In this document: positions 15,455-37,156 of the stretch, in pieces
Position numbering within the stretch: the first letter of the stretch is position 1
Layout of the letters: each line of letters begins with the position of its first letter
Notes under the pieces: generated by a model
Databases searched by the model: none
The model's input: the letters and a program-made list of their open reading frames with translations, nothing else
What the model was told of the DNA's origin: nothing
NCBI RefSeq assembly: GCF_056746865.1
Contig: NZ_CM163382.1
Strand: one strand, 5' to 3'
DNA length: 64,000 nucleotides
Translations under genes and position numbers: made by a program

Positions 15455-15852
15455 CGCTTCAGTTCCTGTATCAGCAGAGTCAGGAGCTTTTCGCTGACAT
15501 TGCCATTGAAGCGGAGCGTCCCGTGCCGGAACGTTACCTCACAGCTGATACTGAGGGTTTCCGGGTCCTCTGCGAGCGATTCTGGCTGTTCGGCAGCTGC
15601 ATCGAGAGTCACAGGAAGTAGCTGGGGGCTCTCTGAAGAAGGTAATAGCAGCTTTCCCTCGCGCCATTGTTGTCGCCATTTGAACAACAGATTGGCGTTA
15701 ATGCCATTTTCAAGAGCAAGTTTTGAGATGGATATCCCGGGTTCACAGGAGGCAGCAACGAGCAGCTGTTTAAATTCGGGAGGATAATTAGGGCAGCCTT
15801 TTCGCCTGCCGGGAGTCACATTTTTCTGCATATCTGACACTTTGGTTCCCAC
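15451..15852 (-). CDS. IS66 Orf1 (TnpA)
   Basis: 133 aa HTH protein; overlaps orf2. Confidence 0.8.
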   Translation of the reverse strand: MGTKVSDMQKNVTPGRRKGCPNYPPEFKQLLVAASCEPGISISKLALENGINANLLFKWRQQWREGKLLLPSSESPQLLPVTLDAAAEQPESLAEDPETLSISCEVTFRHGTLRFNGNVSEKLLTLLIQELKR

Positions 15853-16185
15853 TACTTATTTGGTGGACACCACTTTGTCTAATTCGTCAGATTCTGACCA
15901 GACGGTTCAGGCTGTACGCTTACCACTATTTTATCCCTGTTGAATTTGGTTAAGCCGGTGCAGACGCGCCGGGAAACGCACACCTGAACCGGTACAATAA
16001 AATACAATACAACCCCCTGTTACTGGAGATACGAATGGAATGACGAGGCAGCCTGTCAGTCACAGGGGGCTGTTGGCATAAAATCAATGGAAAGGCCACC
16101 AACACCGGAATTAAGCTCCACAGTCCCCGCACTGGCAATCCATTCCCGGGAAAGGCATCACCGCAAACTGCTCCGGAGGCAACCA

Positions 16186-16620
16186 TTACAGCCTCTGTAA
16201 CGGATTATCAGCCCTGGCATCTTCCGACGGCACCTCCTGCCGCCCCCACGCCCTGCTGTATACCCCGGTACCGCAGCGTGGGCAGCACTTTTCCCCCTCA
16301 TAATCTTCGTCACACATCACACAAAACCACTTTCTCACCTTCACCGTATAATCCGGAACCGTCATGCCCTGCAGATGCAAACGACGGGCCTCTTTCTCTG
16401 CCGGGTCAAGCCAGGTACATCGCAGCAGGATTTTTTCAGCGACAGTCATCTGGTCATGTTCAAACCACGGTGGTTGTCCGTCATTGCCCCGCTGAAGTGT
16501 TAACGGGCATCCACAGGACACACAGCACAAAACGTCCTGTCGGTTGTGCTTCGCAGCTTCTTTCGCCGTAACAAAATGGCCTTTGCTGTCATTCGCCATA
16601 TAACAGTTCAGAATTCGCAT
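16186..16620 (-). CDS. Zinc-ribbon protein, paralog B (uncharacterized)
   Basis: 144 aa from internal ATG with AGGAGG SD; CxxC...PWFEH...C and WxCxxCxxDYxGExxCxxCxTG motifs; overlaps upstream paralog by 13 nt. Confidence 0.6.
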   Translation of the reverse strand: MRILNCYMANDSKGHFVTAKEAAKHNRQDVLCCVSCGCPLTLQRGNDGQPPWFEHDQMTVAEKILLRCTWLDPAEKEARRLHLQGMTVPDYTVKVRKWFCVMCDEDYEGEKCCPRCGTGVYSRAWGRQEVPSEDARADNPLQRL

Positions 16621-17015
16621 ATTTCCTCCTGAGTTGTCCGGGGAATACTGAATCCTCCGGTCTGGCAGTGTGTGCAGTACTGCTCCCCATAATAATCGTG
16701 GTGACATTGTCTGCAGTGCCAGCTGGCTTTACGCACCACGGGTAAGGCATCCGGTACGAATTGCTGCAGACGTTTAATCAACTGTATTTCTCTGCGCTCC
16801 GGCCTGACATAAGGGCACTGTTGACCGTGCTCTGTCAGCCTGTCGTCAGTGTGTTCAAACCAGGGAAGTTCAGTGTCGTATTGCGGATGGTATCTGAGTG
16901 CACTGCCACACAAGTGGCAGGTGTAGTGAGCATAAGGTGCGGCCTGTGCAGTACGGGCGCCCGTCAGACGTCCGTTGCCATCAAGAGCGATAAAGGATTT
17001 TGCGTACATAGTCAT
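16608..17015 (-). CDS. Zinc-ribbon protein, paralog A (uncharacterized)
   Basis: 135 aa; same motif architecture as paralog B; AAGGA SD. Confidence 0.65.
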   Translation of the reverse strand: MTMYAKSFIALDGNGRLTGARTAQAAPYAHYTCHLCGSALRYHPQYDTELPWFEHTDDRLTEHGQQCPYVRPERREIQLIKRLQQFVPDALPVVRKASWHCRQCHHDYYGEQYCTHCQTGGFSIPRTTQEEICEF

Positions 17016-17268
17016 ATTCCTTAGCCGCCAGACGACACGCAGGCAACAGCCGTCCCGGTACGGGCAGCGTGGTCAGGGTGTGAATGGCGGTTCAGTTAAA
17101 ATCTGGACTGGAGTTTGGGTAAAGCAGGCTGGTTGCTGTTACAGCACTGTGGTTGTCACACAATGGAACACTGACGTAAAAAACAGTCAGTGGGCGAGTG
17201 GATACATCGTTGCCGCCAGACAACAACCCATACTTTTGGTTTGCCGGATATTGGCGCGCCAGTCGTGC

Positions 17269-17838
17269 TCAACTCCGGCTACAGCCAAAATTGCGCTCAC
17301 CGGTGCAGTGAGCTTTGGTATACTCCTTCGCCAGATAGTCAGCACGTTCCAGCACTTGCTGAAAGCCGGTGTCATCATTACGCGCCAGCCACACCGCCGG
17401 CCAGGCCGGAAAATGCACCAGCGTGGCATGGCACCCGACATCCACTCCCAGGGCACTGCACCACGCCTGTTTAATCATCCCGGCCAGAGACTCCGGAGCG
17501 CGGTAATCACCGGCACGACACCAGGTATCCCGGTTGACCAGCAGCATCAGGTGATAGTGTTTTTTACCTTTGCACTCCCCAAACTCCCGGGCCCAGACGT
17601 AATGCAGGGTTGTGGGATGCACGCGTTTACCTTCCCGATGCTTACGTTTCTGGTAAGCGTCGATTCGGGCTTTCAGGGCATTGATGAAGCGGGATATCAC
17701 AGCTGCGTCCGTTGCTGCCGGTACATCCGGGAAACGCAGGTCAACCCGCAATGCCGTCAGGCGGGGATGAACATTCAGTGCGTGCCGCACCGTCTCACGA
17801 ATACGTTGCTGCCAGAAGGGGTTGTATTTGTAGGTCAT
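17269..17838 (-). CDS. YagK/YfjJ-family (inovirus Gp2-like) protein
   Basis: 189 aa from ATG (MTYKYNPFWQQRIRE...); resembles the CP4-57 YfjJ / CP4-6 YagK family. Confidence 0.7.
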   Translation of the reverse strand: MTYKYNPFWQQRIRETVRHALNVHPRLTALRVDLRFPDVPAATDAAVISRFINALKARIDAYQKRKHREGKRVHPTTLHYVWAREFGECKGKKHYHLMLLVNRDTWCRAGDYRAPESLAGMIKQAWCSALGVDVGCHATLVHFPAWPAVWLARNDDTGFQQVLERADYLAKEYTKAHCTGERNFGCSRS

Positions 17839-18037
17839 GGTTAAATCTCCGTATGGTTCATACGGAATAGCCACGTCGTAAAAAATGCGCAGAGTCCCTG
17901 AAGTGACCTCCGGCAGGACACTGTCTCAGGCACTCTGTGATAACCCGAACGGTCGTCTCCGGACTGACGGTTGAATTTTCAGCGTTGTTTTTTTAATGTA
18001 AAAAACCGGTTACGGGTAAGGCTGTGAGGAGGGAGTG

Positions 18038-18238
18038 ATGGTGATACGCAAAAAGAAGTGCAGGGACTGTGGAAACGCGATTACTCATAATACAGTGTGT
18101 TGCCCGTATTGTGGTTCTGTCGACCCCTTCGGCTATTACCGGAATACAGACCGTATCGTTACCATACTGCTGGCACTGATTATTGTGGTCCTGCTGACTA
18201 CTGTCAGCGTCAGTGTGTATATACTGTGTAGCTGGTGA
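18038..18238 (+). CDS. Small zinc-ribbon membrane protein (66 aa, uncharacterized)
   Basis: Strong SD GGAGGGAG; CxxC(x14)CxxC followed by one hydrophobic transmembrane helix (IVTILLALIIVVLLTTVSVSVYIL). Confidence 0.5.
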   Translation: MVIRKKKCRDCGNAITHNTVCCPYCGSVDPFGYYRNTDRIVTILLALIIVVLLTTVSVSVYILCSW

Positions 18239-18815
18239 GATAACGGTTCATGTATCCCCTGAGCTGACAGTGTACCGGGTATATTAAGCGTAACCGACAG
18301 GTTCTCCTTCATACCATATTAAATTTTTCCAGGTATTGCCGCTGCCTTATTTCGTCCCATACAGGAAAACTCGTCTGGGTTTCTGACAAATACGCGAAAC
18401 TCACAGCCCCTCAATATCAACCACACGCTGTAAGCCGGTAATACCTGAAAATCAGCCTATTACCGCCCGCGCCTCCGTTACCGAACGCTCAGGTGACCAG
18501 ACTGAAGCCCTGCACGCACTCGTAAAGTTTGCGGTCAGTTCCGTCAGTCGGTGGGCAACCGCAGAGTTACGGGCTTCCAGGTCCACAGGAGTGAGTCTAT
18601 AACGCGTGTGAAAAATCATTTTTTCTGGCGTTGACAGAACACATTACAGGCTGCCACTTACCCGGTGTCCCGCAATACAGCCTTAGTGTTCCGTTATCGG
18701 GGATCCGGACGCACCGCAACAACCGGGGAAGTATTTCTGGTTTAGAGCTGTGTCAAGAGGGATTTCTCAGCCCCTCACTCACCGGCTCAGTCTCAGAGCA
18801 GGAGTGGATTTGCCC

Positions 18816-20696: not shown

Positions 20697-22168
<1,472 letters not shown>

Positions 22169-22258
22169 TGACCGTTATCCGTTCACCCGCAGCAGACGTA
22201 ATCTCCGGCCTGCCGGCGGCATTCTGCTGCCTGTTATATCCCCGTGAGGAATATGAAA

Positions 22259-22861
22259 ATGAAACAACAGTATCAGACCCGCTACGAATGGCTCCACGAA
22301 AGCTACCAGAAATGGCTGACCGGCTTCACCCGGCACGCCGTATCCTGGGGCGTGTGTCATCCGAATATCTACTACTTCCATAATCTGACGCCCGGTTGGG
22401 TGTCATTCAATGGTGAAAAACCGGAGATTGCCATCGTACCCCAGAGCCTGCACCGGCTGATTTATGGCCCTGACAAACGGGCCACACCGCCCCTGGATGA
22501 TGATCTGATAGTGAATTTATGCACCAGTGAACATCTGCTGGTTCATCATCCGATGCTGGAAGGCATTCTCCTGTCTGAATGTGAACGTCTGAGGCAGCGT
22601 TCTCTGGCAAATAAACTGATCAGCCTCTTCCGTCAGTTTGGTGGCACGGAGTTGCGCCTCAAACTGGTCTGGCTTTGCTGGCTTGATTTAATGACCGGAA
22701 ACTGCCTTGACGACTGGACGGAGAATCTGAAACGGAAATCAGAAAAAGAGCTGGAGGAATGGATCATCAACCGTCAGAAGCAGAGCGCAGCACTGACGGA
22801 TCTGATGGATCAGTACGTGCTCCTGTCATACCGCACAACGGTTGACGATAAGCGCACCTGA
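22259..22861 (+). CDS. Hypothetical protein (200 aa)
   Basis: ATG with GAGGA SD 8 nt upstream; no recognised domain; lies directly downstream of the original alpA end. Confidence 0.45.
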   Translation: MKQQYQTRYEWLHESYQKWLTGFTRHAVSWGVCHPNIYYFHNLTPGWVSFNGEKPEIAIVPQSLHRLIYGPDKRATPPLDDDLIVNLCTSEHLLVHHPMLEGILLSECERLRQRSLANKLISLFRQFGGTELRLKLVWLCWLDLMTGNCLDDWTENLKRKSEKELEEWIINRQKQSAALTDLMDQYVLLSYRTTVDDKRT

Positions 22862-23083
22862 TGCCAGTTGTTTCAGGGAAGCTGGTATCCGGGCAGGGTG
22901 CCAGGGCTGACTGAACGGCCTGTCTGCCTGCCGTTTCGCTCTCCGTGCGTTCTGTCACACGCTGCACCTGAACGCCGGACTGCGGGCACGCAGACAGGAA
23001 AGTCGCAGGCTGGAACTTCTGACCGGCGGGTATCAGTTATATGCCTGTTGATTCATCACCACCACGCAGCTCCTGAGCTTTAG

Positions 23084-23123
23084 TTCATCACCGATATTCA
23101 TACATCTGAATATCGGTGATGAA
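23084..23123. terminator. Perfect 17-bp inverted repeat with 6-nt loop between convergent genes
   Basis: TTCATCACCGATATTCA-TACATC-TGAATATCGGTGATGAA; no U-tract, so it may be a bidirectional terminator or a protein-binding palindrome. Confidence 0.4.
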
Positions 23124-23182
23124 ATCCCCATAATAATCAATCATCTAAGTCTGAAGCATAATGGAGAAAAACTGCTCACCGG

Positions 23183-24667
23183 TTACTTCGCTCTCAGCTT
23201 ATTGTAGTGATAACCCGAGGTAAAAATACCAGAGACATCAGACAACTTTAAACTGGCTATCTGGGGAAGCAGAACATACATGGTTTTTCCTTCCGGCACG
23301 ACAGAAAGCCTGAACTGAGATTCAAGAATGTTCAGCAATGCGTTCAGTTTTTTCCTGTTTCTGAACCGGCCCGGGCCACACTGGAGAATATAATTTTTCC
23401 TGACACGGGGCGGGCATTCTCCGCGGCACTCCTCAATGAGCCAGTCGAACAGCTCCTCGGCGTCCTTCTGCTGCAGTTCAGATTCATCAGGTAACGCAAA
23501 TAATTTTTTATATTCATCTGTGTACCACGAACTTATTACGACAGCAGACGTCATGATATCGGCAGAGATTTTCCCTTCACCATAGCTGAAATACTGAAAT
23601 AACGCTGCAATTCTTGCAATGTTTTCTGTTTTTTTTGAAACATGTCCCCGAAACGGGCTTAAGGGTCCGGAAGGGGATAAATCCTGCTCCAGAACATTAT
23701 AGTGCTCAATAAATATTTTTTGCGCTTCAGGCGAAAAATGCAGACAATACCGTTCATCCTCACTGGATTTTTCAATACTGCCTCTGGCCAGTTCCATTAA
23801 TCGTTCATGAAATGCCGTTAATGATCCTCCCGGAATCACAGCTCCGTTAATAAAGCGTTTCCCCTGCGTGGTTGCAGGTTTACTGATAAGACAACGGGCA
23901 AGAAAACCACTGTCCCTGGCAACAGAACCTTTTCGCTCCATATATCGGTCAAAAAGACCGGGTTGCACCATGAGGGATAACGTCATTCTGGCATTTTCAA
24001 TCATCTGTTCGGGTTCATTCTTTCTGTCCACAGACAATACAGAGCCATCCCACATTTTGTTAATAAAAGGCAACTCAGACAGGGTATATCCATCAAATAT
24101 AATACCGGCTTCATCTGACATAATACCAACTGAACGCCATTTACCACAAAGCTGATTCTTAATTGCCGCAGTCGTGGCATCATTAAAAATGAATTTATAC
24201 CTCACAGGTTCTTCCGCACTGTTTTTCTGAAGTACTTCCAGTTGTCTGAGGGTTTCTGACTCATCCGCGCCTTTGCGGAGTTCTTTATTCAGTTTTGACA
24301 ACAATGCTTTTTTCTGAGCCTTTAAAAGCTCTTCCTTGTTTTTCCAGACAGCCAGTTCACTTTTGTATCTGGAATATAACTGCATCTCCTGCTGGTACAG
24401 GGGCTTCATTAATAATTTGTCCACTGCGGTTTTTCGTTCTCCGGACTCGGCAAGCGTCAGGAAAAAAAGAGAGACCGGCCCCCGCAGTGTATTCAGTCTG
24501 CAGACATCAATCAGATTCTGGCAGACAAGTGAAACAGCGCCCAGGGCAGACGCTGCCACAAGCCCAAGGGGAGCCTGCGTAATTTGCTGAGCTTCAATAA
24601 CGGCATCACGAATGAGTGGAGGCAGCGAACTCAGGGGAAACTCATCACAAGGCTGACCGAATGACAT
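23183..24667 (-). CDS. DUF3987-like protein (YfjI-like)
   Basis: 494 aa from MSFGQPCDEF...; resembles CP4-57 YfjI-type proteins; SD GAGG. Confidence 0.65.
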   Translation of the reverse strand: MSFGQPCDEFPLSSLPPLIRDAVIEAQQITQAPLGLVAASALGAVSLVCQNLIDVCRLNTLRGPVSLFFLTLAESGERKTAVDKLLMKPLYQQEMQLYSRYKSELAVWKNKEELLKAQKKALLSKLNKELRKGADESETLRQLEVLQKNSAEEPVRYKFIFNDATTAAIKNQLCGKWRSVGIMSDEAGIIFDGYTLSELPFINKMWDGSVLSVDRKNEPEQMIENARMTLSLMVQPGLFDRYMERKGSVARDSGFLARCLISKPATTQGKRFINGAVIPGGSLTAFHERLMELARGSIEKSSEDERYCLHFSPEAQKIFIEHYNVLEQDLSPSGPLSPFRGHVSKKTENIARIAALFQYFSYGEGKISADIMTSAVVISSWYTDEYKKLFALPDESELQQKDAEELFDWLIEECRGECPPRVRKNYILQCGPGRFRNRKKLNALLNILESQFRLSVVPEGKTMYVLLPQIASLKLSDVSGIFTSGYHYNKLRAK

Positions 24668-25897
24668 AGTAACCTCACTATACACAGATATAAAAGCACT
24701 GCAATTCTGGCTATTAATAGCAAAAATAGCAGTCAAATCAATATGAGGTAAAATTTTTTGTTGATTTAATGGTTAAATAATAACCACAGTGTATTTTGCT
24801 GCTGAAGAAAGACAAAATGAATCTGTGTGTCCCCTCCTTCCCTTCGGAGCACATCCACTATTCAAATTTTACACAACCACGTACGAACAAAAAGCATCAT
24901 CCCGGGTATTGCAGATACCGGTTTCCTGCCGGGAAGAATCATAAACAGAACACCGGGAATAACGCCTTCAGGAATCACCCCCCCTCCTGAAGAAGAATAA
25001 AATAAAGAAGACTACAGTTCCTGCACTGAATGCTGAGTACAATATTTTATGGACAGGATGACATTTTTATAAATAACAAAAACCATTTAATACTGATACA
25101 TCAATAAAATACTTCTTCCCTGCTGACACAGATAAAATGCACCATTTTTTCTTCAAATACTTCTGTATAATCGCCAGCCAATGATGAGAATGGATTAAAA
25201 TAACACTTCTTCGACAAACACAAAAACAGCCTTCATTTTACATCATCATCCAGTTTCAGTTAACCCCGGACGAGCGACAGTGTTTCAGTACAGGAATTAA
25301 AAGCCAGCTTTTGCTCAGTAAAACACACTCAACTAATAATATCTCAGCAGATATTATCCTGACCAGGACACCTCACATTACTGAATTCTCTTCCGACAGT
25401 ATCACTGCACAAATAAAAAAGAACGGGATAAATATTCAGACCGGAAGAATGGTGTCACAAAAGCATTTAATCATTACGCATGACCAGGAAGGGAAACACT
25501 TAACCACATGGTATCAACAGATATCATTACGTGTGCACTCTTATAAAAAACACACAGAAGAAGTAAGATAATTATAAACGTAAATTTAATATCTCCCACT
25601 GACATCTCCCCCACAATACACTAAAAAATACTCACAGCAGTAAACACAGATACACCTGATAATCATACAGCCGATAAATATTTTCCCCTTTACGGAGAAA
25701 TCAGCCTGCTGTTTAACAATAACGGCGTATTTTCATGGAAGGAGATCACCCAGTAACGGATAAGTCCTGATCTCCTTCATGTTAATACGCAACAATCCCA
25801 TCGATTCAAAACAATTTCAGACAGATATTATCTCCGTGAATCCCCCGCCACCTTTCCGGTGCGCGGGGTTTTGTCTTTTTTCACCGGGAATACATGT

Positions 25898-26770
25898 ATG
25901 AATCCGTCTGATGCCATTGAGGCAATTGAAAAACCGCTCTCCTCCCTGCCTTACTCACTTTCCCGTCACATCCTGGAACATCTGCGCAAACTCACCAGTC
26001 ACGAACCCGTGATTGGCATTATGGGTAAAAGCGGGGCCGGTAAATCCTCACTCTGTAATGCACTGTTTCAGGGGGAGGTCACCCCGGTCAGTGATGTTCA
26101 CGCCGGCACCCGGGAAGTGCGGCGCTTCCGTCTGAGTGGCCACGGTCACAGCATGGTTATCACTGACCTGCCCGGGGTGGGCGAGAGCCGGGACAGGGAT
26201 GCAGAGTATGAAGCCCTGTACCGTGACATTCTGCCCGAACTGGACCTGGTGCTGTGGCTGATTAAAGCCGATGACCGCGCCCTGTCTGTGGATGAGTATT
26301 TCTGGCGACACATCCTGCACCGGGGACATCAGCAGGTGCTGTTTGTGGTGACGCAGGCCGACAAAACGGAGCCCTGCCATGAATGGGATATGGCCGGCAT
26401 TCAGCCTTCTCCCGCACAGGCACAGAACATTCGGGAGAAAACGGAGGCGGTATTCCGTCTGTTCCGGCCCGTACATCCGGTTGTTGCCGTATCGGCCCGC
26501 ACCGGCTGGGAACTGGATACGCTGGTCAGTGCGCTAATGACAGCACTTCCCGACCATGCCGCCAGTCCCCTGATGACCCGCCTGCAGGACGAGCTGCGCA
26601 CGGAATCTGTCCGCGCTCAGGCCCGTGAACAGTTTACCGGTGCGGTGGACCGGATATTTGACACGGCGGAGAGCGTCTGTGTTGCCTCTGTTGCCCGTAC
26701 GGTTCTGCGTGCCGTCCGTGACACGGTGGTCTCTGTTGCCCGCGCTGTATGGAACTGGATTTTCTTCTGA
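25898..26770 (+). CDS. YeeP/YfjP/YkfA-family GTPase
   Basis: 290 aa from MNPSDAIEAIE...; P-loop GKSGAGKSS; precedes Ag43 as in CP4-44. Confidence 0.75.
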   Translation: MNPSDAIEAIEKPLSSLPYSLSRHILEHLRKLTSHEPVIGIMGKSGAGKSSLCNALFQGEVTPVSDVHAGTREVRRFRLSGHGHSMVITDLPGVGESRDRDAEYEALYRDILPELDLVLWLIKADDRALSVDEYFWRHILHRGHQQVLFVVTQADKTEPCHEWDMAGIQPSPAQAQNIREKTEAVFRLFRPVHPVVAVSARTGWELDTLVSALMTALPDHAASPLMTRLQDELRTESVRAQAREQFTGAVDRIFDTAESVCVASVARTVLRAVRDTVVSVARAVWNWIFF

Positions 26771-26884
26771 ACAGTCTGCCAGGGAAATGCCTGATAACAT
26801 TACGTTAACCAACTGAAAACATGACACAAACCCCTCATACTCCTCCTGTTTCTCTTGCGTGACCGCCTTGTCGTTAATAGAATA

Positions 26885-26928
26885 AAACGATCGATAAAAC
26901 AGGTATCGATCGTTGCTATCGATCGTTT
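26885..26928 (+). promoter_or_regulatory. Ag43 phase-variation switch (three GATC sites, OxyR/Dam)
   Basis: ACGATCGATAAAACAGGTATCGATCGTTGCTATCGATCGTTTAT about 220 bp upstream of flu start; GATC at about 26889, 26908, 26921. Confidence 0.7.
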
Positions 26929-27141
26929 ATAGTGGTTAATGGTCTGCGAAAAGGCAGCTGAATCTCTTCATCATGCAGAACGGAATTGCACACAACGGAC
27001 TGATACTTCTCTGGCGGATGAGAGAGGGGAAGCATTTATGTCCGGGAAAAACCACTTTATCTGAGCATGCTGTTTTGTACCTGCCGGTATCCACATTTGT
27101 GGGTACCGGCTTTTTTATTCACCCTCTGTAAGGAAAAGCTG

Positions 27142-30100
27142 ATGAAACGACATCTGAACACCAGCTACAGGCTGGTATGGAATCACATTACGGGCACCCT
27201 GGTGGTGGCCTCCGAACTGGCCCGCTCACGGGGAAAACGCGCTGGTGTGGCGGTTGCGCTGTCTCTTGCTGCTGTCACATCAGTCCCGGCACTGGCTGCT
27301 GACAAGGTTGTACAGGCGGGAGAAACCGTGAACGACGGAACACTGACAAATCATGACAACCAGATTGTCCTCGGTACGGCCAACGGAATGACCATCAGTA
27401 CCGGTCTGGAGTATGGGCCGGATAACGAGGCCAATACCGGCGGACAATGGATACAAAATGGCGGTATCGCCAACAACACTACTGTCACCGGTGGTGGTCT
27501 TCAGAGAGTGAATGCCGGAGGAAGCGTTTCAGACACGGTTATCAGTGCCGGAGGCGGACAGAGCCTTCAGGGGCAGGCAGTGAACACCACTCTGAACGGC
27601 GGTGAGCAGTGGGTACATGAAGGCGGGATTGCAACGGGTACCGTCATTAATGAGAAGGGCTGGCAGGCCATCAAATCCGGCGCAGTGGCAACCGACACGG
27701 TTGTGAATACCGGCGCGGAAGGGGGACCGGATGCGGAAAATGGTGATACCGGGCAGACCGTCTACGGAGATGCCGTACGCACCACCATCAATAAAAATGG
27801 TCGTCAGATTGTGGCTGCTGAAGGAACGGCAAATACCACTGTGGTTTATGCCGGCGGCGACCAGACTGTACATGGTCACGCACTGGATACCACGCTGAAT
27901 GGGGGGTACCAGTATGTGCACAACGGCGGTACGGCGTCTGGCACTGTTGTAAACAGTGACGGCTGGCAGATTGTCAAAAACGGGGGTGTGGCCGGGAATA
28001 CCACCGTTAATCAGAAGGGCAGACTGCAGGTGGACGCCGGTGGTACAGCCACGAATGTCACCCTGAAGCAGGGCGGCGCACTGGTTACCAGTACGGCTGC
28101 AACCGTTACCGGCATAAACCGCCTGGGAGCATTCTCTGTTGTGGAGGGTAAAGCTGATAATGTCGTACTGGAAAATGGCGGACGCCTGGATGTGCTGACC
28201 GGACACACAGCCACTAATACCCGCGTGGATGATGGCGGAACGCTGGATGTCCGCAACGGTGGCACCGCCACCACCGTATCCATGGGAAATGGCGGTGTAC
28301 TGCTGGCCGATTCCGGTGCCGCTGTCAGTGGTACCCGGAGCGACGGAAAGGCATTCAGTATCGGAGGCGGTCAGGCGGATGCCCTGATGCTGGAAAAAGG
28401 CAGTTCATTCACGCTGAACGCCGGTGATACGGCCACGGATACCACGGTAAATGGCGGACTGTTCACCGCCAGGGGCGGCACACTGGCGGGCACCACCACG
28501 CTGAATAACGGCGCCATACTTACCCTTTCCGGGAAGACGGTGAACAACGATACCCTGACCATCCGTGAAGGCGATGCACTCCTGCAGGGAGGCTCTCTCA
28601 CCGGTAACGGCAGCGTGGAAAAATCAGGAAGTGGCACACTCACTGTCAGCAACACCACACTCACCCAGAAAGCCGTCAACCTGAATGAAGGCACGCTGAC
28701 GCTGAACGACAGTACCGTCACCACGGATGTCATTGCTCAGCGCGGTACAGCCCTGAAGCTGACCGGCAGCACTGTGCTGAACGGTGCCATTGACCCCACG
28801 AATGTCACTCTCGCCTCTGGTGCCACCTGGAATATTCCCGATAACGCCACGGTGCAGTCGGTGGTGGATGACCTCAGCCATGCCGGACAGATTCATTTCA
28901 CCTCCACCCGCACAGGGAAGTTCGTACCGGCAACCCTGAAAGTGAAAAACCTGAACGGACAGAATGGCACCATCAGCCTGCGTGTACGCCCGGATATGGC
29001 ACAGAACAATGCTGACAGACTGGTCATTGACGGTGGCAGGGCAACCGGAAAAACCATCCTGAACCTGGTGAACGCCGGCAACAGTGCGTCGGGGCTGGCG
29101 ACCAGCGGTAAGGGTATTCAGGTGGTGGAAGCCATTAACGGTGCCACCACGGAGGAAGGGGCCTTTATCCAGGGGAATAAGCTGCAGGCCGGTGCCTTTA
29201 ACTACTCCCTCAACCGGGACAGTGATGAGAGCTGGTATCTGCGCAGTGAAAATGCTTATCGTGCTGAAGTCCCCCTGTATACATCCATGCTGACACAGGC
29301 AATGGACTATGACCGGATTCTGGCAGGCTCCCGCAGCCATCAGACCGGTGTAAACGGTGAAAATAACAGCGTCCGTCTCAGCATTCAGGGCGGTCATCTC
29401 GGTCACGATAACAACGGCGGTATTGCCCGTGGAGCCACGCCGGAAAGCAGCGGCAGCTATGGCTTCGTCCGTCTGGAGGGTGACCTGCTCAGAACAGAGG
29501 TTGCCGGTATGTCTCTGACGACAGGGGTGTATGGTGCCGCAGGCCATTCTTCCGTTGATGTTAAGGATGATGACGGTTCCCGCGCCGGCACGGTCCGGGA
29601 TGATGCCGGCAGCCTGGGCGGATACCTGAATCTGACACACACGTCCTCCGGCCTGTGGGCTGACATTGTGGCACAGGGAACCCGCCACAGCATGAAAGCG
29701 TCATCGGACAATAACGACTTCCGCGCCCGGGGCTGGGGCTGGCTGGGCTCACTGGAAACCGGTCTGCCCTTCAGTATCACTGACAACCTGATGCTGGAGC
29801 CACAACTGCAGTATACCTGGCAGGGACTTTCCCTGGATGACGGCCAGGATAACGCCGGTTATGTGAAGTTCGGGCATGGCAGTGCACAACATGTGCGTGC
29901 CGGTTTCCGTCTGGGCAGCCACAACGATATGAGCTTTGGTGAAGGCACCTCATCCCGTGACACCCTGCGCGACAGTGCAAAACACCGTGTGCGTGAACTG
30001 CCGGTGAACTGGTGGGTACAGCCTTCTGTTATCCGCACTTTCAGCTCCCGGGGTGACATGAGCATGGGTACAGCCGCAGCCGGCAGTAACATGACGTTCT

Positions 30101-30261
30101 CACCGTCCCGGAATGGCACGTCACTGGACCTGCAGGCCGGACTGGAAGCCCGTGTCCGGGAAAATATCACCCTGGGCGTTCAGGCCGGTTATGCCCACAG
30201 TGTCAGCGGCAGCAGCGCTGAAGGTTATAACGGTCAGGCCACGCTGAATGTGACTTTCTGA
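27142..30261 (+). CDS. flu: Antigen 43 self-associating autotransporter adhesin
   Basis: 1039 aa from [33 protein letters not shown] (extended signal peptide); repetitive passenger; C-terminal barrel ending ...NVTF. Confidence 0.9.
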
Positions 30262-30331
30262 TAATCAGGTCACTCTCCTTCAGGCCCCGGTCATCATGAC
30301 CGGGGCTTTTTACTTTCAGGGAGCAACAGAT

Positions 30332-30490
30332 ATGCCGGGTTGTACATCACGTTTATTGCCCGAAGGCCCTTTCTCACGCGAACAGGCTGTTGCCGTCAAA
30401 ACAGCTTACCGCAATGTGTTTACTGAAGATGACCAGGGAACATATTCCCGGCTGGTTATCCGTAATGCTGAAGGTCAGTTGCGCTGGTGA
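30332..30490 (+). CDS. DUF905-like small protein (possibly truncated)
   Basis: 52 aa ...[44 protein letters not shown]; family-like sequence continues past the TGA (CWNTA*). Confidence 0.45.
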
Positions 30491-30644
30491 TGCTGGAACA
30501 CAGCTTAATACTCAGCTCGCCAGTTAAGGGCTTCTCAGACAATAAACGTCATTCATTTCATCTGTCAGGCCGCGTCTTCTCCGGGAGACGTGGCTTTTTC
30601 ATTTATTACACCAGTAAATCGTAACCACCGATAAGGAGCAAATT

Positions 30645-31463
30645 ATGCGACTAGCCAGTCGTTTTGGTTATGCGAACCAGATACGCCGTGACCGTCCGCT
30701 GACACACGAAGAACTGATGCACTATGTTCCCAGTATTTTCGGTGAAGACCGGCATACTTCCCGCAGTAAACGATATGCGTACATTCCCACCATCACCGTA
30801 CTGGAAAGCCTGCAGCAGGAAGGTTTTCAGCCATTCTTCGCCTGCCAGACCCGCGTGCGCGACCCGGGCCGCCGGGGATACACAAAACACATGCTGCGTC
30901 TGCGGCGGGCCGGAGAGATAAACGGAGAACATGTCCCTGAAATTATTCTGCTCAACTCTCATGACGGTACCTCCAGCTACCAGATGCTGCCGGGTTACTT
31001 CAGATTCGTCTGCCAGAATGGCTGCGTCTGCGGTCAGTCTCTGGGGGAAGTGCGTGTTCCACACCGGGGAAATGTGGTGGAGAAAGTTATCGAAGGGGCT
31101 TACGAAGTGGTGGGGGTTTTTGACCGGATTGAGGAAAAGCGTGATGCCATGCAGTCGCTGGTCCTGCCGCCACCGGCACGCCAGGCGCTGGCACAGGCGG
31201 CACTGACTTACCGTTATGGTGACGAACATCAGCCGGTCACCACCGCTGACATTCTGACACCACGACGCAGGGAGGATTACGGTCAGGACCTGTGGAGCGC
31301 ATATCAGACCATCCAGGAGAATATGCTGAAAGGCGGAATTTCCGGCCGCAGTGCAAAAGGAAAACGTATCCACACCCGTGCCATTCACAACATCGACACC
31401 GATATTAAGCTCAACCGCGCATTGTGGGTAATGGCAGAAACGCTGCTGGAGAGCCTGCGCTGA
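30645..31463 (+). CDS. DUF932 protein (YfjQ/YafZ family)
   Basis: 272 aa, AAGGAG SD; CP4-type island family. Confidence 0.75.
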   Translation: MRLASRFGYANQIRRDRPLTHEELMHYVPSIFGEDRHTSRSKRYAYIPTITVLESLQQEGFQPFFACQTRVRDPGRRGYTKHMLRLRRAGEINGEHVPEIILLNSHDGTSSYQMLPGYFRFVCQNGCVCGQSLGEVRVPHRGNVVEKVIEGAYEVVGVFDRIEEKRDAMQSLVLPPPARQALAQAALTYRYGDEHQPVTTADILTPRRREDYGQDLWSAYQTIQENMLKGGISGRSAKGKRIHTRAIHNIDTDIKLNRALWVMAETLLESLR

Positions 31464-31804
31464 TGCAGCATGTCCCTGAAAGCGTGATTCAGGCACCAGA
31501 ATCACCCGACGCCCCGGAGGCGCTGCCGGGGTGTCGTTCCATTTCTGATGATGACCTGTGCGCCTGGTGTACCCGTCTGCTTTACCGTCCCGGAGAAATC
31601 AGTCTGTGCAGACTGAGTATACAGGCAATGGCATCTGGCCATCCGTCTGTGACCGGAACGGTTACGCGTACGGCTGTCCGGAATTTCAGCCGAATATCAT
31701 TCATCCCTGATATTACCGGGTCATCACGGTCAGTGATGAACGTGATGTTGCCAGCTCCCGACCTTTACTCCCTCTCATTTATTCACATTACAAGGATTTC
31801 ATAC

Positions 31805-32278
31805 ATGAAAACATTGTCTCAGAACACCACCTCTTCGGCCTGTGCACCGGAGACTGACCTGCAACAACTGGTAGCCACTCCCGTCCCTGATGAACGGCGC
31901 ATCAGCTTCTGGCCGCAGCACTTTGGCCTCATTCCACAGTGGGTGACCCTGGAGCCCCGTATCTTCGGCTGGATGGACCGTCTGTGTGAAGACTACTGCG
32001 GTGGTATCTGGAATCTGTACACCCTGAACAACGGCGGGGCATTTATGGCACCCGAACCGGATGACGATGATGACGAAACATGGGTACTGTTCAATGCCAT
32101 GAACGGTAACCGCGCTGAAATGAGCCCGGAAGCCGCCGGCATTGCTGCCTGTCTGATGACGTACAGTCATCATGCCTGTCGTACGGAGTGTTATGCCATG
32201 ACGGTCCATTATTACCGGCTGCGGGATTACGCCCTGCAGCATCCGGAATGCAGCGCCATTATGCGCATCATCGACTGA
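31805..32278 (+). CDS. Antirestriction protein (KlcA/ArdB-like, YfjX/YafX family)
   Basis: 157 aa from MKTLSQNTTSS...; acidic DDDDDE patch; upstream in-frame extension to 31463 has no stop. Confidence 0.7.
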   Translation: MKTLSQNTTSSACAPETDLQQLVATPVPDERRISFWPQHFGLIPQWVTLEPRIFGWMDRLCEDYCGGIWNLYTLNNGGAFMAPEPDDDDDETWVLFNAMNGNRAEMSPEAAGIAACLMTYSHHACRTECYAMTVHYYRLRDYALQHPECSAIMRIID

Positions 32279-32293
32279 ATGGAGAGAAGTACA

Positions 32294-32770
32294 ATGCAAC
32301 AGCTTTCCTTTCTGCCCGGAGAGATGACGCCCGGCGAGCGCAGCCTCATTCAACGGGCCCTGAAAACCCTGGACCGCCATCTTCATGAACCCGGCGTGGC
32401 CTTCACCTCCACCCGTGCGGCACGAGAATGGCTGATTCTGAACATGGCGGGACTGGAGCGTGAAGAGTTCCGGGTGCTGTATCTGAACAACCAGAATCAG
32501 CTGATTGCCGGTGAAACCCTCTTCACCGGCACCATCAACCGCACGGAAGTCCATCCCCGGGAAGTGATTAAACGCGCCCTGTATCACAATGCCGCTGCTG
32601 TGGTGCTGGCACACAATCACCCGTCCGGTGAAGTCACACCCAGCAAGGCAGACCGCCTTATCACGGAACGTCTGGTACAGGCACTGGGCCTGGTGGATAT
32701 CCGGGTGCCGGACCATCTGATAGTCGGTGGCAGCCAGGTTTTCTCCTTTGCCGAATATGGTCTGCTTTAA
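32294..32770 (+). CDS. RadC-like JAB-domain protein (YeeS/YkfG/YfjY family)
   Basis: JAMM motif HNHPSGxxxPSxxD; start may be 32279. Confidence 0.8.
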   Translation: MQQLSFLPGEMTPGERSLIQRALKTLDRHLHEPGVAFTSTRAAREWLILNMAGLEREEFRVLYLNNQNQLIAGETLFTGTINRTEVHPREVIKRALYHNAAAVVLAHNHPSGEVTPSKADRLITERLVQALGLVDIRVPDHLIVGGSQVFSFAEYGLL

Positions 32771-32832
32771 CCCGTCACAACCACATCACACCTGTTTTCA
32801 CTTTTATCTTCTGTCTTCAGAGGTATCCCACT

Positions 32833-33054
32833 ATGAAAATCATCACCCGTGGCGAAGCCATGCGTATTCACCGTCAGCATCCGGCATCCCGTCTTTTTCC
32901 GTTCTGTACCGGCAAATACCGCTGGCACGGCAGTGCTGAAGCGTATACCGGTCGTGAAGTGCAGGATATTCCCGGTGTGCTGGCCGTGTTTGCAGAACGC
33001 CGTAAGGACAGTTTTGGTCCGTATGTCCGGCTGATGAGCGTCACCCTGAACTGA
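32833..33054 (+). CDS. DUF987 protein (YeeT/YkfH family)
   Basis: 73 aa MKIITRGEAMRIHRQHPASRLFPFCTGKYRWHGSAEAYTGREVQDIPGVLAVFAERRKDSFGPYVRLMSVTLN. Confidence 0.6.
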   Translation: MKIITRGEAMRIHRQHPASRLFPFCTGKYRWHGSAEAYTGREVQDIPGVLAVFAERRKDSFGPYVRLMSVTLN

Positions 33055-33216
33055 TGTTCCGTCACCCGGAAAACGAGTACGACTGGCAGAGCTCAGACGC
33101 CGCTGTGGATGAGGTCCTGCTCATCAACGAATACACCTTTACCGAAGCCGGTCTGCGCGCCGGCTGACCCGTCATCGTTAAACTATCATTCACCGATTTT
33201 CTGTGAGGATTTTATC

Positions 33217-33585
33217 GTGTCAGACACACTTTCCGGGACAACGCATCCCGATGACAATGACGACCATCCCTGGTGGGGACTACCCTGCACAGTGACGCCC
33301 TGTTTCGGCGCCCGTCTGGTGCAGGAGGGTAACCGGTTGCATTACCTTGCCGACCGTGCCGGTATCAGAGGCCGGTTCAGAGATGCGGATGCGTACCCTC
33401 TGGACCAGGCCTTTCCGCTGCTGATGAAACAACTGAAATTAATGCTCACCAGTGGTGAACTGAATCCCCGCCATCAGCATACCGTGACACTGTATGCGAA
33501 GGGGCTGACCTGTGAAGCCGACACCCTCGGCTCCTGTGGTTACGTTTATCTGGCTGTTTATCCGACACCTGAAACGAAAAAGTAA
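33217..33585 (+). CDS. cbeA: CbeA/YeeU-family antitoxin
   Basis: 122 aa from GTG (SDTLSGTTHPDDNDDHPWWGLPCTVTPCFGARLVQEG...); GAGGA SD. Confidence 0.75.
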   Translation: MSDTLSGTTHPDDNDDHPWWGLPCTVTPCFGARLVQEGNRLHYLADRAGIRGRFRDADAYPLDQAFPLLMKQLKLMLTSGELNPRHQHTVTLYAKGLTCEADTLGSCGYVYLAVYPTPETKK

Positions 33586-33674
33586 ACCACCAGAATAACC
33601 TTCTGCTCCGGCCTGGTGTTTTCACCACGCCACTGTCCCATTTTTTATCTCTGCATATCAGGAAAATCTTCAGT

Positions 33675-33733
33675 ATGAAAACATTACCCGACACGCATGT
33701 ACGGGAGGTATCGTGCTGCCCGTCTCCAGTCAC
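33675..33733 (+). pseudogene. cbtA: cbtA/yeeV-family toxin gene, 5' fragment, disrupted by IS21-family insertion
   Basis: MKTLPDTHVREVSCCPSPVT then the IS end; the reading frame resumes after the IS at 36371 (..TIWQTLLTRLLDQH) and then diverges from the family. Confidence 0.7.
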
Positions 33734-33832
33734 TGCGTATTCCGCTCTATTCGATCACGGATTGGCATCGAAGTCCGATCAGCGATTCGCATCCATTCGA
33801 TCAACCGGGAACTTAACTTTTTCTACCGCTTT

Positions 33833-34588
33833 TTAACGCGTTTTTTCGCTGCTTTCCACTACCGGGGGATTTTTCCTCAGTGACTCTCCCTGAAGGACCA
33901 CCCGGTGTGAGTTATGTACCAGTCTGTCCAGGATGGCATCTGCTGTTGTTGGGTTCTCCATCAGACCATGCCATTTATCTACCGGGAACTGGCTTACCAC
34001 TATCGTGCTGCTTTGTCCGTAACGATCCTCTATGAGCTCCAGAAGGTCATTACACTGGGCGTTACTTAACTGTTCCAGCCCCAGATCGTCCAGGATTAGA
34101 ACCTGTATTTTTTGCAACTGTTTCAGATATTTCAGCCAGCTGCCATCAACACGTCCCTGAGCCAGTTGTTCCAGTAATCGCCCGGTTCTACAGTACCGGA
34201 CGCTGTGTTTCTGTCGACATGCCTGTTCGCCCAGCGCATTGGCTATCCAGCTCTTGCCACATCCTGTCGGACCGGTTATCAGCAGGTTTTTCCTGTGGGT
34301 TATGTAGTGGCCGTTCAGCAGTTCTCTCATCTGTTCAGCCCGCAGACCTCTTGAGGCCGGATAGCGCAGCCCTTCCGGTGTTGCCTGGTATTTCAGGCCG
34401 GCATTTTTTCTCAACCGTGCCACACGGCTGTTTTCCCTGCTCAGAAGCTCGTCATCAACCAGCAGCGTCAGCCTTTCCTCGAACGACAGTTCGTCGTAGG
34501 TCTGAGGCGTTTCCCGCTGCCGTATCAGGCTCCCGGCCATCGCCGGGAGTTTCAGTTGGGTCAGTTTGTTTAACAGGTTATCACTCAT
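33833..34588 (-). CDS. istB: IS21-family helper ATPase IstB
   Basis: 251 aa from MSDNLLNKLTQLKLP...; Walker A GPTGCGKS. Confidence 0.85.
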   Translation of the reverse strand: MSDNLLNKLTQLKLPAMAGSLIRQRETPQTYDELSFEERLTLLVDDELLSRENSRVARLRKNAGLKYQATPEGLRYPASRGLRAEQMRELLNGHYITHRKNLLITGPTGCGKSWIANALGEQACRQKHSVRYCRTGRLLEQLAQGRVDGSWLKYLKQLQKIQVLILDDLGLEQLSNAQCNDLLELIEDRYGQSSTIVVSQFPVDKWHGLMENPTTADAILDRLVHNSHRVVLQGESLRKNPPVVESSEKTR

Positions 34589-34604
34589 ACTGTTGTTCCT
34601 TCTG

Positions 34605-36140
34605 TCAGTGGTAGTAGCCCGGACCACGCAGGTTTTCATGCTCTGAAGCATATGCCGGATGTTGTTCGCCCTGGCGGGATAATGGAAGCTCCAGGTTCTC
34701 CCGATGGTGACGCAGCAGATTGTCGATAAAGCGTCTGTCAGGGGCGTTATAGTGCAGGGCAACGTAACAGGCCTTTTCCAGCCGTTCCGGGCCGTATTTT
34801 TTCTGAAGTGCCAGCAGCCCCAGAACTGCACGATAAGCCAGTTCCGGATGGGGTTTTGCCTTCAGCATGGATTCAACCACCCGGCCTGTGGACGGGCCCG
34901 TACGTTTTCCCTGCTCGATCAGGCGTTCCGGTGTCCATGTCCCGTGCTGCCGGTGGCGCTCTGGCATGTGAAGCGGATTGGTTGTGTGTTTATATTCATG
35001 TGTGCTGCGCGGATGTTGCGCCACACACTGCCCCTTGTGCCAGAGCTGTACCACCGACTGCCCCGCCTTCAGTGACAGACGCTGACCGACCAGTTCGTGT
35101 GGAACGGAGTACCAGTGACGGGCATATTCAACGTGGTAGTCAGGGCCAACCTTCACAGCTTTGTATTCCGTGTATTCATAAGGTGCCAGAGGCAGCGGAG
35201 AGAGTGCTGGCGCATCCAGTATGCGGAAGCGTTCTGCACGGGTTTGATTGCCGTACCCCTTCATTGGCCGGTTATTCATGTCTGTCAGTAACTCCCTAAG
35301 GCGCGCATTCAGCGCCCTGAGCGTGTGGAAGGTTTCATTACGGATGCGGGCAAGAAGCCATCGTTCGACGATGAGGACGCCGTTTTCTGCTTTTGGTTTA
35401 TCTTTAGGTTTGCGTGGTCGGGCCGGGATGATAACCGTGCCATAGTGCTCAGCCAGTGCCTGATAACTGTCGTTGATGACAGGCTCATATCGATCGGCCT
35501 TTTTCACTGCGCTTCTGAGGTTATCGGGGATGAGCAGCTTCGGTACGCCGCCCAGGAAGGTCAGGCAACGGCTGTGGGCATTTAACCATGACATCATGTC
35601 CTGACCTTCGCACGCTTCAACGTAGGTATAGTTGGACGCCCCCATTACGGCCACGAAGATTGCCACGCGGCGTATCTCACCGGTGTCCGGATTAATAACA
35701 GGAACCGTAGGACCACAGAAGTCGATAAAAAGCTTTTCGCCGGCACGATGCTCCTGGCGCATGGAGAGACGTCGCGTTTTTTTCCACTCCCGGTAGCAAC
35801 GGCAGAAGTGCGAGTATCCCATCGCTTTGTTACCCGCCTGTGCCTTGTATTCCATCCACAACAGTTGCCGCGTCACACCTGGTTTTCTCATTTCCGTATC
35901 GAGGTACAACATGTCAGGCATTACAAGCTCTGATGCAAAGGTGTCTTTGGGCGGAAAAATGAGTTTCTCCAGCGTGTCATGGGATATATCAGCAGGTAAT
36001 GGCCATGACAGAGAAGAGGCTTTGAAGCGGGCAAGAACCTCAAAAACGGTTGAGGCGCTGATGTGTAACGTCAGTCCGATACAACGGTTAGTCAGCTTCT
36101 TGTCGAACTTGAGCTGAAGAATCTTAAAACAGGTTTCCAT
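34605..36140 (-). CDS. istA: IS21-family transposase IstA
   Basis: 511 aa from METCFKILQLKF...; HTH plus DDE core; AGGAG SD. Confidence 0.85.
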   Translation of the reverse strand: METCFKILQLKFDKKLTNRCIGLTLHISASTVFEVLARFKASSLSWPLPADISHDTLEKLIFPPKDTFASELVMPDMLYLDTEMRKPGVTRQLLWMEYKAQAGNKAMGYSHFCRCYREWKKTRRLSMRQEHRAGEKLFIDFCGPTVPVINPDTGEIRRVAIFVAVMGASNYTYVEACEGQDMMSWLNAHSRCLTFLGGVPKLLIPDNLRSAVKKADRYEPVINDSYQALAEHYGTVIIPARPRKPKDKPKAENGVLIVERWLLARIRNETFHTLRALNARLRELLTDMNNRPMKGYGNQTRAERFRILDAPALSPLPLAPYEYTEYKAVKVGPDYHVEYARHWYSVPHELVGQRLSLKAGQSVVQLWHKGQCVAQHPRSTHEYKHTTNPLHMPERHRQHGTWTPERLIEQGKRTGPSTGRVVESMLKAKPHPELAYRAVLGLLALQKKYGPERLEKACYVALHYNAPDRRFIDNLLRHHRENLELPLSRQGEQHPAYASEHENLRGPGYYH

Positions 36141-36686
36141 AGTGCTCCTGGATTTTCTCTTTCTGGACATTGACGTCTCCACTGGTTTAAACACGGCAAT
36201 GGAGACTGTGGTGAAAAGAGTTAATTCCCGGAGTGACTGGCAGGATGCCAATCAATGATCGGAAGCATGCCAAATCGTGATCGATTGTGATGCCAAACTG
36301 TGATCGGAGATGGATGCCAAATCATGATCGATTCGAATGCCAAACTGCGATCGATTCAGATGCCATTTTGCAGTCACCATCTGGCAGACACTGCTCACCC
36401 GGTTACTGGACCAGCATTCCCTGATTTCCTCATCGATATCGAATAAGCACTCGTCGCAGAATTCTTTATCGAGTGAGAGCCTCTGTTCAAGGACGCTTCT
36501 TTTTTTTGTTGCAACGTGCACATCCCTTCATCTTTCCGCGCCTTTGTGACCTCGTGATTTGGGGTACATGGAAAATGGGCGTAGCAAGCCTCAGCTAGAT
36601 AACTAACCGTAATAAAAGGGCTTTTCTGCGAGCAATGTAAGAGAAGGATAACTAGGCAGGTTGCAAGAAAGATAATCGTTTTGATA

Positions 36687-36721
36687 GATCAGTTTATCGA
36701 TATTGATCGTTAGTGCCGATC
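36687..36721 (+). promoter_or_regulatory. Triple-GATC motif resembling the Ag43 Dam/OxyR switch
   Basis: GATC at about 36687, 36705, 36718 (spacing 18 and 13 bp, versus 19 and 13 upstream of flu) within ATCGAT-rich sequence about 440 bp upstream of mtnK. Confidence 0.3.
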
Positions 36722-37156
36722 GATAAGAAGTGCGGAAACGTTAGACTCACCTCTGTTGCTCCATCATGATGATGGGGCTGTTGGCCCTCGAATCTATCTG
36801 TCTATTAGCATCGGCATGACAAACACCATTTGTTTCCACAACAAAAGACAATAGAAAAGTACATATGTACAAAAAGTGTGATTTATTCTGTCACTTCAGT
36901 ACTTCCTTTCGCCTAAGTTTGCCCGTAATAATTCCCCGTGCAGTACTATTGTTGCGACATAACAACATGAATTACATGGTAATAATAGATGTTTTCCTCT
37001 GCTGATTCCTGTAAGGATCATGACTCCATACGACATCATTTTTAATTTTATACAGTTCAAAAAATCTACATGTGTCACAAATAATTTTACATTTGATAAT
37101 GTATAGTTGTCACATGACAAGTTGATTATCATTCTGTGTAGACAAGGAGAACTGTT

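Follow-up and report, generated by a model that had tools for sequence, protein, structure and literature searches.

The locus lies in a CP4-type island that adjoins the fec operon and carries many IS fragments, within a window of 64 kb (the whole stretch of DNA that was analysed). On its 5′ side are a GTPase gene (25859-26770) and the Ag43 autotransporter gene agn43 (27067-30261), the latter followed on the plus strand by a terminator hairpin with a 12-pair stem, including 8 GC pairs, and then a T-run (30282..30308). On its 3′ side is a DUF932 gene (30645-31463). Between them lies the remnant of a DUF905 gene, the in-frame part of which (30332..30490, plus strand) consists of 52 codons and a TGA. 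The Shine-Dalgarno sequence GGAG (30320..30323, plus strand) is located 8 nt 5′ of the ATG at 30332-30334, as in intact alleles, and the gene is followed on the same strand by an intrinsic terminator (30567..30596; 13-pair stem and T-run) that is kept in intact and broken alleles. Further island genes nearby specify antirestriction, RadC/JAB and DUF987 proteins, a CbeA-type antitoxin and a truncated cbtA, so that the usual neighbourhood of DUF905 genes in islands (DUF932, antirestriction, RadC/JAB, DUF987, CbeA/CbtA) is found here, and the gene order around the remnant is the same as that at loci with intact alleles. No second DUF905 copy was found in the 64-kb window by tblastn.

Reading of the sequence bore out every coordinate of the original prediction. 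The open reading frame contains 52 sense codons, ends with ...NAEGQLRW (last codon TGG, 30485-30487) and meets a premature TGA as codon 53 (30488..30490, plus strand), which is followed on the same strand by the tail TGC TGG AAC ACA GCT TAA (30491..30508), that is, CWNTA and a TAA at 30506-30508. The 52-residue product scored 55.3 bits on the Pfam DUF905 profile (PF06006; cut-off 22.3, E=7e-15), and its in-frame coverage was restricted to profile positions 2-46 of 70, short of a complete domain. In a tblastn search of the window with an intact 77-aa homologue, the main HSP (E=1.3e-34) read through the stop, and a second HSP (E=0.001) joined residues 60-77 to the +1 frame at 30489-30542. Homologous coding after the TGA amounts to 3 codons in frame and 18 codons in the +1 frame, which showed that the resemblance beyond the stop reflects real homology and not chance. 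The C-terminal coding remnant in the +1 frame occupies 30489..30545 on the plus strand, as supported by this second HSP and by alignments; it contains a TAA at 30525-30527, where intact alleles have GAA for Glu-72 in the original, now displaced frame, and alignments place the ancestral TAA of the DUF905 gene at 30543-30545.

At E. coli loci with the same gene order in complete genomes, the intact DUF905 gene is 234 nt long and has 77 codons. Its products read ...GQLRW-R-CWNFESDAGKQLN(A/T)(W/R)LASEGLLRQ, with Arg or Cys at codon 53 before CWNFESDAGKQLN. Beyond Trp-52, intact homologues read ...LRWRCWNFE(S/P)DAGKQLN..., in keeping with the continuation ...LRWRCWNFEP... that the original prediction gave for the family. 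A protein database search returned 229 relatives, of which the full-length ones had 77 aa, or 89 aa where an upstream ATG was called; intact members of 77 aa ended with ...G(L/I)(L/H/P)RQ. The only 52-aa entries among the 229, P0116 and P0117, both came from the damaged lineage, and no homologue from another lineage ended naturally at Trp-52. Thus the gene is indeed truncated relative to its family, with the stop replacing a codon that specifies Arg in most intact alleles. Codon 53 was CGG in 10, TGC in 5 and CGC in 1 of 16 intact loci, and CGA in none. In a 23-sequence alignment, N56, E58, D60, A61, G62, L65, N66, L69, G73, R76 and Q77 were conserved at 90% or above, and all 11 of these C-terminal columns are lost in the window copy.

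Close relatives of the window copy include intact alleles that are also linked to Ag43. These 77-aa proteins, namely WP_032256349.1 (strain E600003), WP_001117565.1 (strain 98227) and cluster P0001, are encoded between Ag43 and DUF932 with the same ribosome-binding site and terminators, and the P0001 alleles (L011-L016) equal the window copy over the first 52 codons, including a Tyr38/Ser39 signature. Unlike the window copy, these alleles keep 20 bp that are missing from it, have CGG for Arg-53 and GAA for Glu-72, and end with ...LLRQ. The ribosome-binding site, the ATG and the first 52 codons of the window copy, identical with those of P0001, the closest intact allele, are undamaged, so that a 52-aa fragment might still be produced.

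The copies were compared in nucleotide alignments, including one made with MAFFT. Three lesions set the window copy apart from every intact allele and disable it: codon 53 has become a stop, 20 bp are missing at this stop or directly after it, and GAA has changed to TAA. One such lesion relative to intact, conserved homologues would be sufficient to define a pseudogene. The substitutions unique to the pseudogene were also three in number and all lay 3′ of the stop, two of them converting ACGCGG to ACTCAG and the third being GAA>TAA. In every intact allele, imperfect direct repeats of the form G(C/A)TGC(C/T)GGAA were visible at a spacing of 20 bp, within the codons ...TGG (C/T)G(G/C) TGC (C/T)GG AAT... 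and ...C(C/A)C GAT GCC GGA AA..., and the TGC-(C/T)GG-AA in the tail at 30491..30508 is the sole surviving repeat copy. Every possible 20-nt deletion was then tried in 12 intact alleles, one of which (L004) was uninformative, its row being the wrong segment. In 11 of the 12, the best placement kept the downstream repeat copy and put the junction between 30487 and 30490, on the TGA itself. From alleles with CGG (Arg-53), this deletion leaves TGG-CGA-TGC-CGG, from which a single C>T change makes TGA; from alleles with TGC (Cys-53; P0106 and P0028 types, L018, L020, L021 and L023), the deletion alone yields TGG-TGA-TGC-CGG-AAC with zero further changes. Without the deletion, a TGA would cost two changes from CGG or CGC and one from TGC. 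Since codon 53 is never CGA in the 16 intact loci and the TGA sits on the deletion junction, a lone CGA>TGA change is the least economical history.

Possible intermediates were sought with synthetic sequences. Among 5,426 complete E. coli genomes, none had an allele with the TGA and without the deletion; the best full-length match of the synthetic hybrid (96.8%) was an intact CGG allele. Neither was the deletion found without the T of the TGA, that is, with an Arg codon; the best match, at 98.2%, was the pseudogene, whereas an allele with a CGA junction would have scored 99.1%. The exact pre-deletion ancestor (TGC at codon 53 and GATGCCGGAACACAG) was absent from the set as well, the best match being a P0106-type allele of strain LSN03-016011/A at 95.6%.

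Alleles of this gene proved to be mosaics. Among L002-L004 and L010-L023, hypervariable codons were observed at position 53 (R/C), at positions 54-56 (CWN/YWN/CRN) and at positions 66-68 (NAW/NVW/NTR/NPY/NAG), within near-identical flanks, which suggests frequent recombination among the paralogous island copies of a genome. A genome has a median of 3 places matching the 431-nt locus. In L014, a metagenomic contig, both flanks equal those of the pseudogene and the differences are confined to a 58-nt core; this contig may be a chimeric metagenome assembly, while L011 is an isolate genome. Because DUF905 alleles are recombination mosaics, the age of the pseudogene is unreadable from flank divergence.

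The distribution of the broken allele was surveyed in the same 5,426 complete genomes. Identity of 99% or more over the 431-nt locus was seen in 1,573 records, and over its 131-nt core in 1,572 of the 5,426 genomes (~29%); carriers included O104:H4 C227-11, Nissle 1917 and ATCC 11775 as well as isolates from birds, dogs, pigs and cattle. All three lesions were present in six out of six inspected pseudogene alleles, and that of STS63-2-E had an extra 2-bp deletion at the junction. The T at 30494, which gives 'CWN' (TGCTGG), belongs to a sub-variant that is in the minority (about 91 records), the common allele having C ('CRN', TGCCGG). The locus is already known: in all five genomes inspected for independent annotation (FDAARGOS_497, C227-11, AR_451, CX08 and OkiPb01717), PGAP in RefSeq lists it as a pseudogene, 'DUF905 family protein, frameshifted'; in FDAARGOS_497 the annotated pseudogene ends at the position equivalent to 30527. 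The corresponding entries EGY17_RS12540 (FDAARGOS_497) and AAF13_RS23365 (O104:H4 C227-11) are the same locus as the window copy. The former is 100% identical over 431 nt and has the same start, Ag43 upstream and DUF932 downstream. The T at 30494 is shared by the window and FDAARGOS_497, whereas C227-11 and most genomes have C; otherwise nothing of substance differs. In the genome with the further 2-bp deletion, PGAP calls the 52-aa reading frame a normal protein, WP_001323397.1.

With regard to transcription, two strong intrinsic terminators bracket the DUF905 gene (regions 30282-30332 and 30567-30645). That of Ag43 is kept in all Ag43-linked alleles and stops about 20 nt 5′ of the DUF905 start, and a promoter scan between this terminator and the ATG at 30332 detected no promoter-like site, which implied that any expression of the remnant would rely on read-through from agn43. 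For intact alleles, read-through from the phase-variable agn43 is one possibility.

The structure of the intact protein indicates what the stop removes. An intact allele was modelled with AlphaFold (mean pLDDT 81.7), which gave α16-25, β29-32, β40-44, β50-55 and α61-70; this model and YkfF of E. coli K-12 (NMR structure, PDB 2HJJ) superpose with an rmsd of 1.4 Å over 65 columns. YkfF belongs to the same family (phmmer E=1.5e-24 for the intact allele). It shares about 57% identity with the intact allele and has the whole domain, whereas the window copy is without the last third. A stop after residue 52 cuts β3 and removes the C-terminal helix α2 together with the conserved C-terminal motif, suggesting that the 52-residue product is unlikely to fold.

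Taken together, these results make it very probable that 30332-30545 is a non-functional remnant, a pseudogene, of the 77-codon DUF905 gene that is normally located between the Ag43 and DUF932 genes in CP4-type E. coli islands, and that it arose by decay through several lesions centred on a deletion. The primary lesion is the loss of 20 bp between the imperfect direct repeats, which took away codons of the conserved W-N-F-E-S/P segment and shifted the frame. Slippage between short direct repeats is a well-established route to deletions, and replication slippage or a microhomology-mediated deletion is the likely route here. The TGA may have been created by the deletion itself, from the TG of Cys-53 TGC and the A of Asp-60 GAT, or it may have required one further base change, either CGA>TGA at the junction or TGC>TGA. 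Further downstream lie three lineage-specific substitutions, including GAA>TAA in the old frame. The broken allele is old enough to have spread with the island, so that ~29% of complete E. coli genomes now carry it. The window copy is a DUF905 member by its descent and HMM score, yet it is a pseudogene of the family. Its product would be at most a fragment of 52 residues, most likely inert, since this fragment ends inside β3 and is devoid of both the C-terminal helix and the motif that is conserved best.

The original prediction had explained the truncation by a recent nonsense change, CGA to TGA, in an otherwise intact gene. Although most intact alleles have Arg at codon 53, and CGA>TGA could have been the final step if the junction had kept CGA, the nucleotide alignments showed that the TGA is always accompanied by the loss of 20 bp and by a second stop; no allele carrying the TGA alone occurs in the 5,426 complete genomes, and none of the 16 intact loci has CGA at codon 53. 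Such a single change is therefore highly improbable. The truncation cannot be regarded as recent either, as the allele, at 99% identity or above, is carried by 1,572-1,573 of these genomes from unrelated strains and lineages. What stood of the original prediction is that the gene is truncated with respect to its family; what did not is that a lone and recent nonsense change was responsible. We also considered programmed recoding (TGA read-through, selenocysteine or a ribosomal frameshift) that would restore the full length, and an error of sequencing or assembly. Coding homology does persist past the TGA in both frames, but read-through would end at a TAA 5 codons on, the TAA at 30525-30527 closes the +1 frame, and the 20 bases that would encode conserved residues are gone from the DNA, so that no single event would afford a full-length product and a recoding site was rejected. 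An Rfam scan of 29800-31000 gave no match above threshold; at E≤1 the only matches were sub-threshold, terminator-like ones on the Ag43 terminator, the best having 21 bits against a 39-bit cut-off. As over 1,500 complete genomes, each assembled independently, have the identical sequence, error fares no better, and the probability left for recoding or error is close to nil.

A different proposal is that the 52-aa fragment is expressed with a retained or acquired function, or that the inactivation was selected, which would explain why the broken allele is the commonest Ag43-linked form. This proposal draws on the undamaged ribosome-binding site, start codon and 52 codons, the same as in intact relatives, on the approximately 1,570-1,830 records of the allele against 241 for intact alleles that share its sequence background, and on the existence of a RefSeq protein record for the 52-aa product. 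The truncation, however, falls inside β3 and eliminates α2 and 11 conserved positions, no promoter was found in the gap that separates the ATG from the Ag43 terminator, and hitch-hiking with a successful island explains the high frequency equally well. Moreover, with a median of 3 matching places per genome, the loss of one copy was probably cheap. We consider a functional fragment or a selected inactivation very unlikely. The chance seems slender, too, that the allele with three lesions became the commonest because loss of full-length DUF905, or possession of the 52-aa fragment, is advantageous once a gene of this plasmid leading-region type has entered the chromosome; the inactivation would then have been selected, or the mini-protein would be neofunctionalised. 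In that proposal DUF905 might be a small inhibitor of a host protein, a suggestion derived from the weak resemblance of the intact fold to Xp10 P7 and T7 Gp1.2. Decay centred on the deletion, as set out above, thus remains our preferred reading of the locus.

Several observations concern the island around the pseudogene. The cbtA toxin gene, 3′ of the CbeA-type antitoxin gene (within the open reading frame 33109-33585), retains only ~20-30 codons (window 33675-33733), and PGAP labels it 'missing C-terminus' in an identical genome. Directly past this remnant lies an IS21-family element of 2,637 bp (33734-36370), with istA/istB-like reading frames on the minus strand (34605-36251 and 33833-34831) and 7 flanking bases that are apparently duplicated. 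This element is missing from FDAARGOS_497, which is 100% identical to the window over 1-18804, 22129-33733 and 36371-51532. The intervening segment 18805-22128 has 3,324 bp in the window and 728 bp in FDAARGOS_497, a difference that is probably due to another mobile-element insertion or to an island rearrangement. The truncated cbtA and the many IS fragments are signs of a decaying island.

Outside the chromosome, DUF905 relatives were found on at least 5,000 plasmids, 4,440 of which are conjugative. The plasmid proteins, encoded in conjugative leading regions, belong to the same Pfam family with 50-60% identity. In p838B-R, the DUF905 gene is located in the leading region between ssb and psiB/psiA, and an antirestriction gene also adjoins; an association of DUF905 with psiB/psiA has been noted before (PMC12826799). 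The island in the window shares the antirestriction gene with this neighbourhood and also has DUF932 and RadC/JAB genes. The plasmid copies are intact, whereas the window copy is chromosomal, stands beside Ag43 and is broken. None of the papers found to mention DUF905 gives it a function, and matches to ykfF/yubL in the literature were mostly unrelated; no NCBIfam model exists for the DUF905 protein, and PHROGs offers only phrog_8779, of unknown function. Besides YkfF, the best structural neighbours of the intact model were small phage inhibitors of host proteins, namely Xanthomonas phage Xp10 P7 (6J9E_J; probability 0.89, E=0.15, TM ~0.5) and T7 Gp1.2 (E ~0.8), both of them weak matches. This resemblance provides a lead on the function of this family of plasmid leading regions.

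The locus itself matters little: it is a routine pseudogene that RefSeq already annotates, and the CP4-type island around it is decaying. Its stop, which sits on a deletion junction between short direct repeats, illustrates that family-like sequence after a stop is no sufficient ground for calling a simple nonsense mutation without an alignment of nucleotides. The question of what DUF905 does concerns the abundant intact copies of the family rather than the copy in the window.
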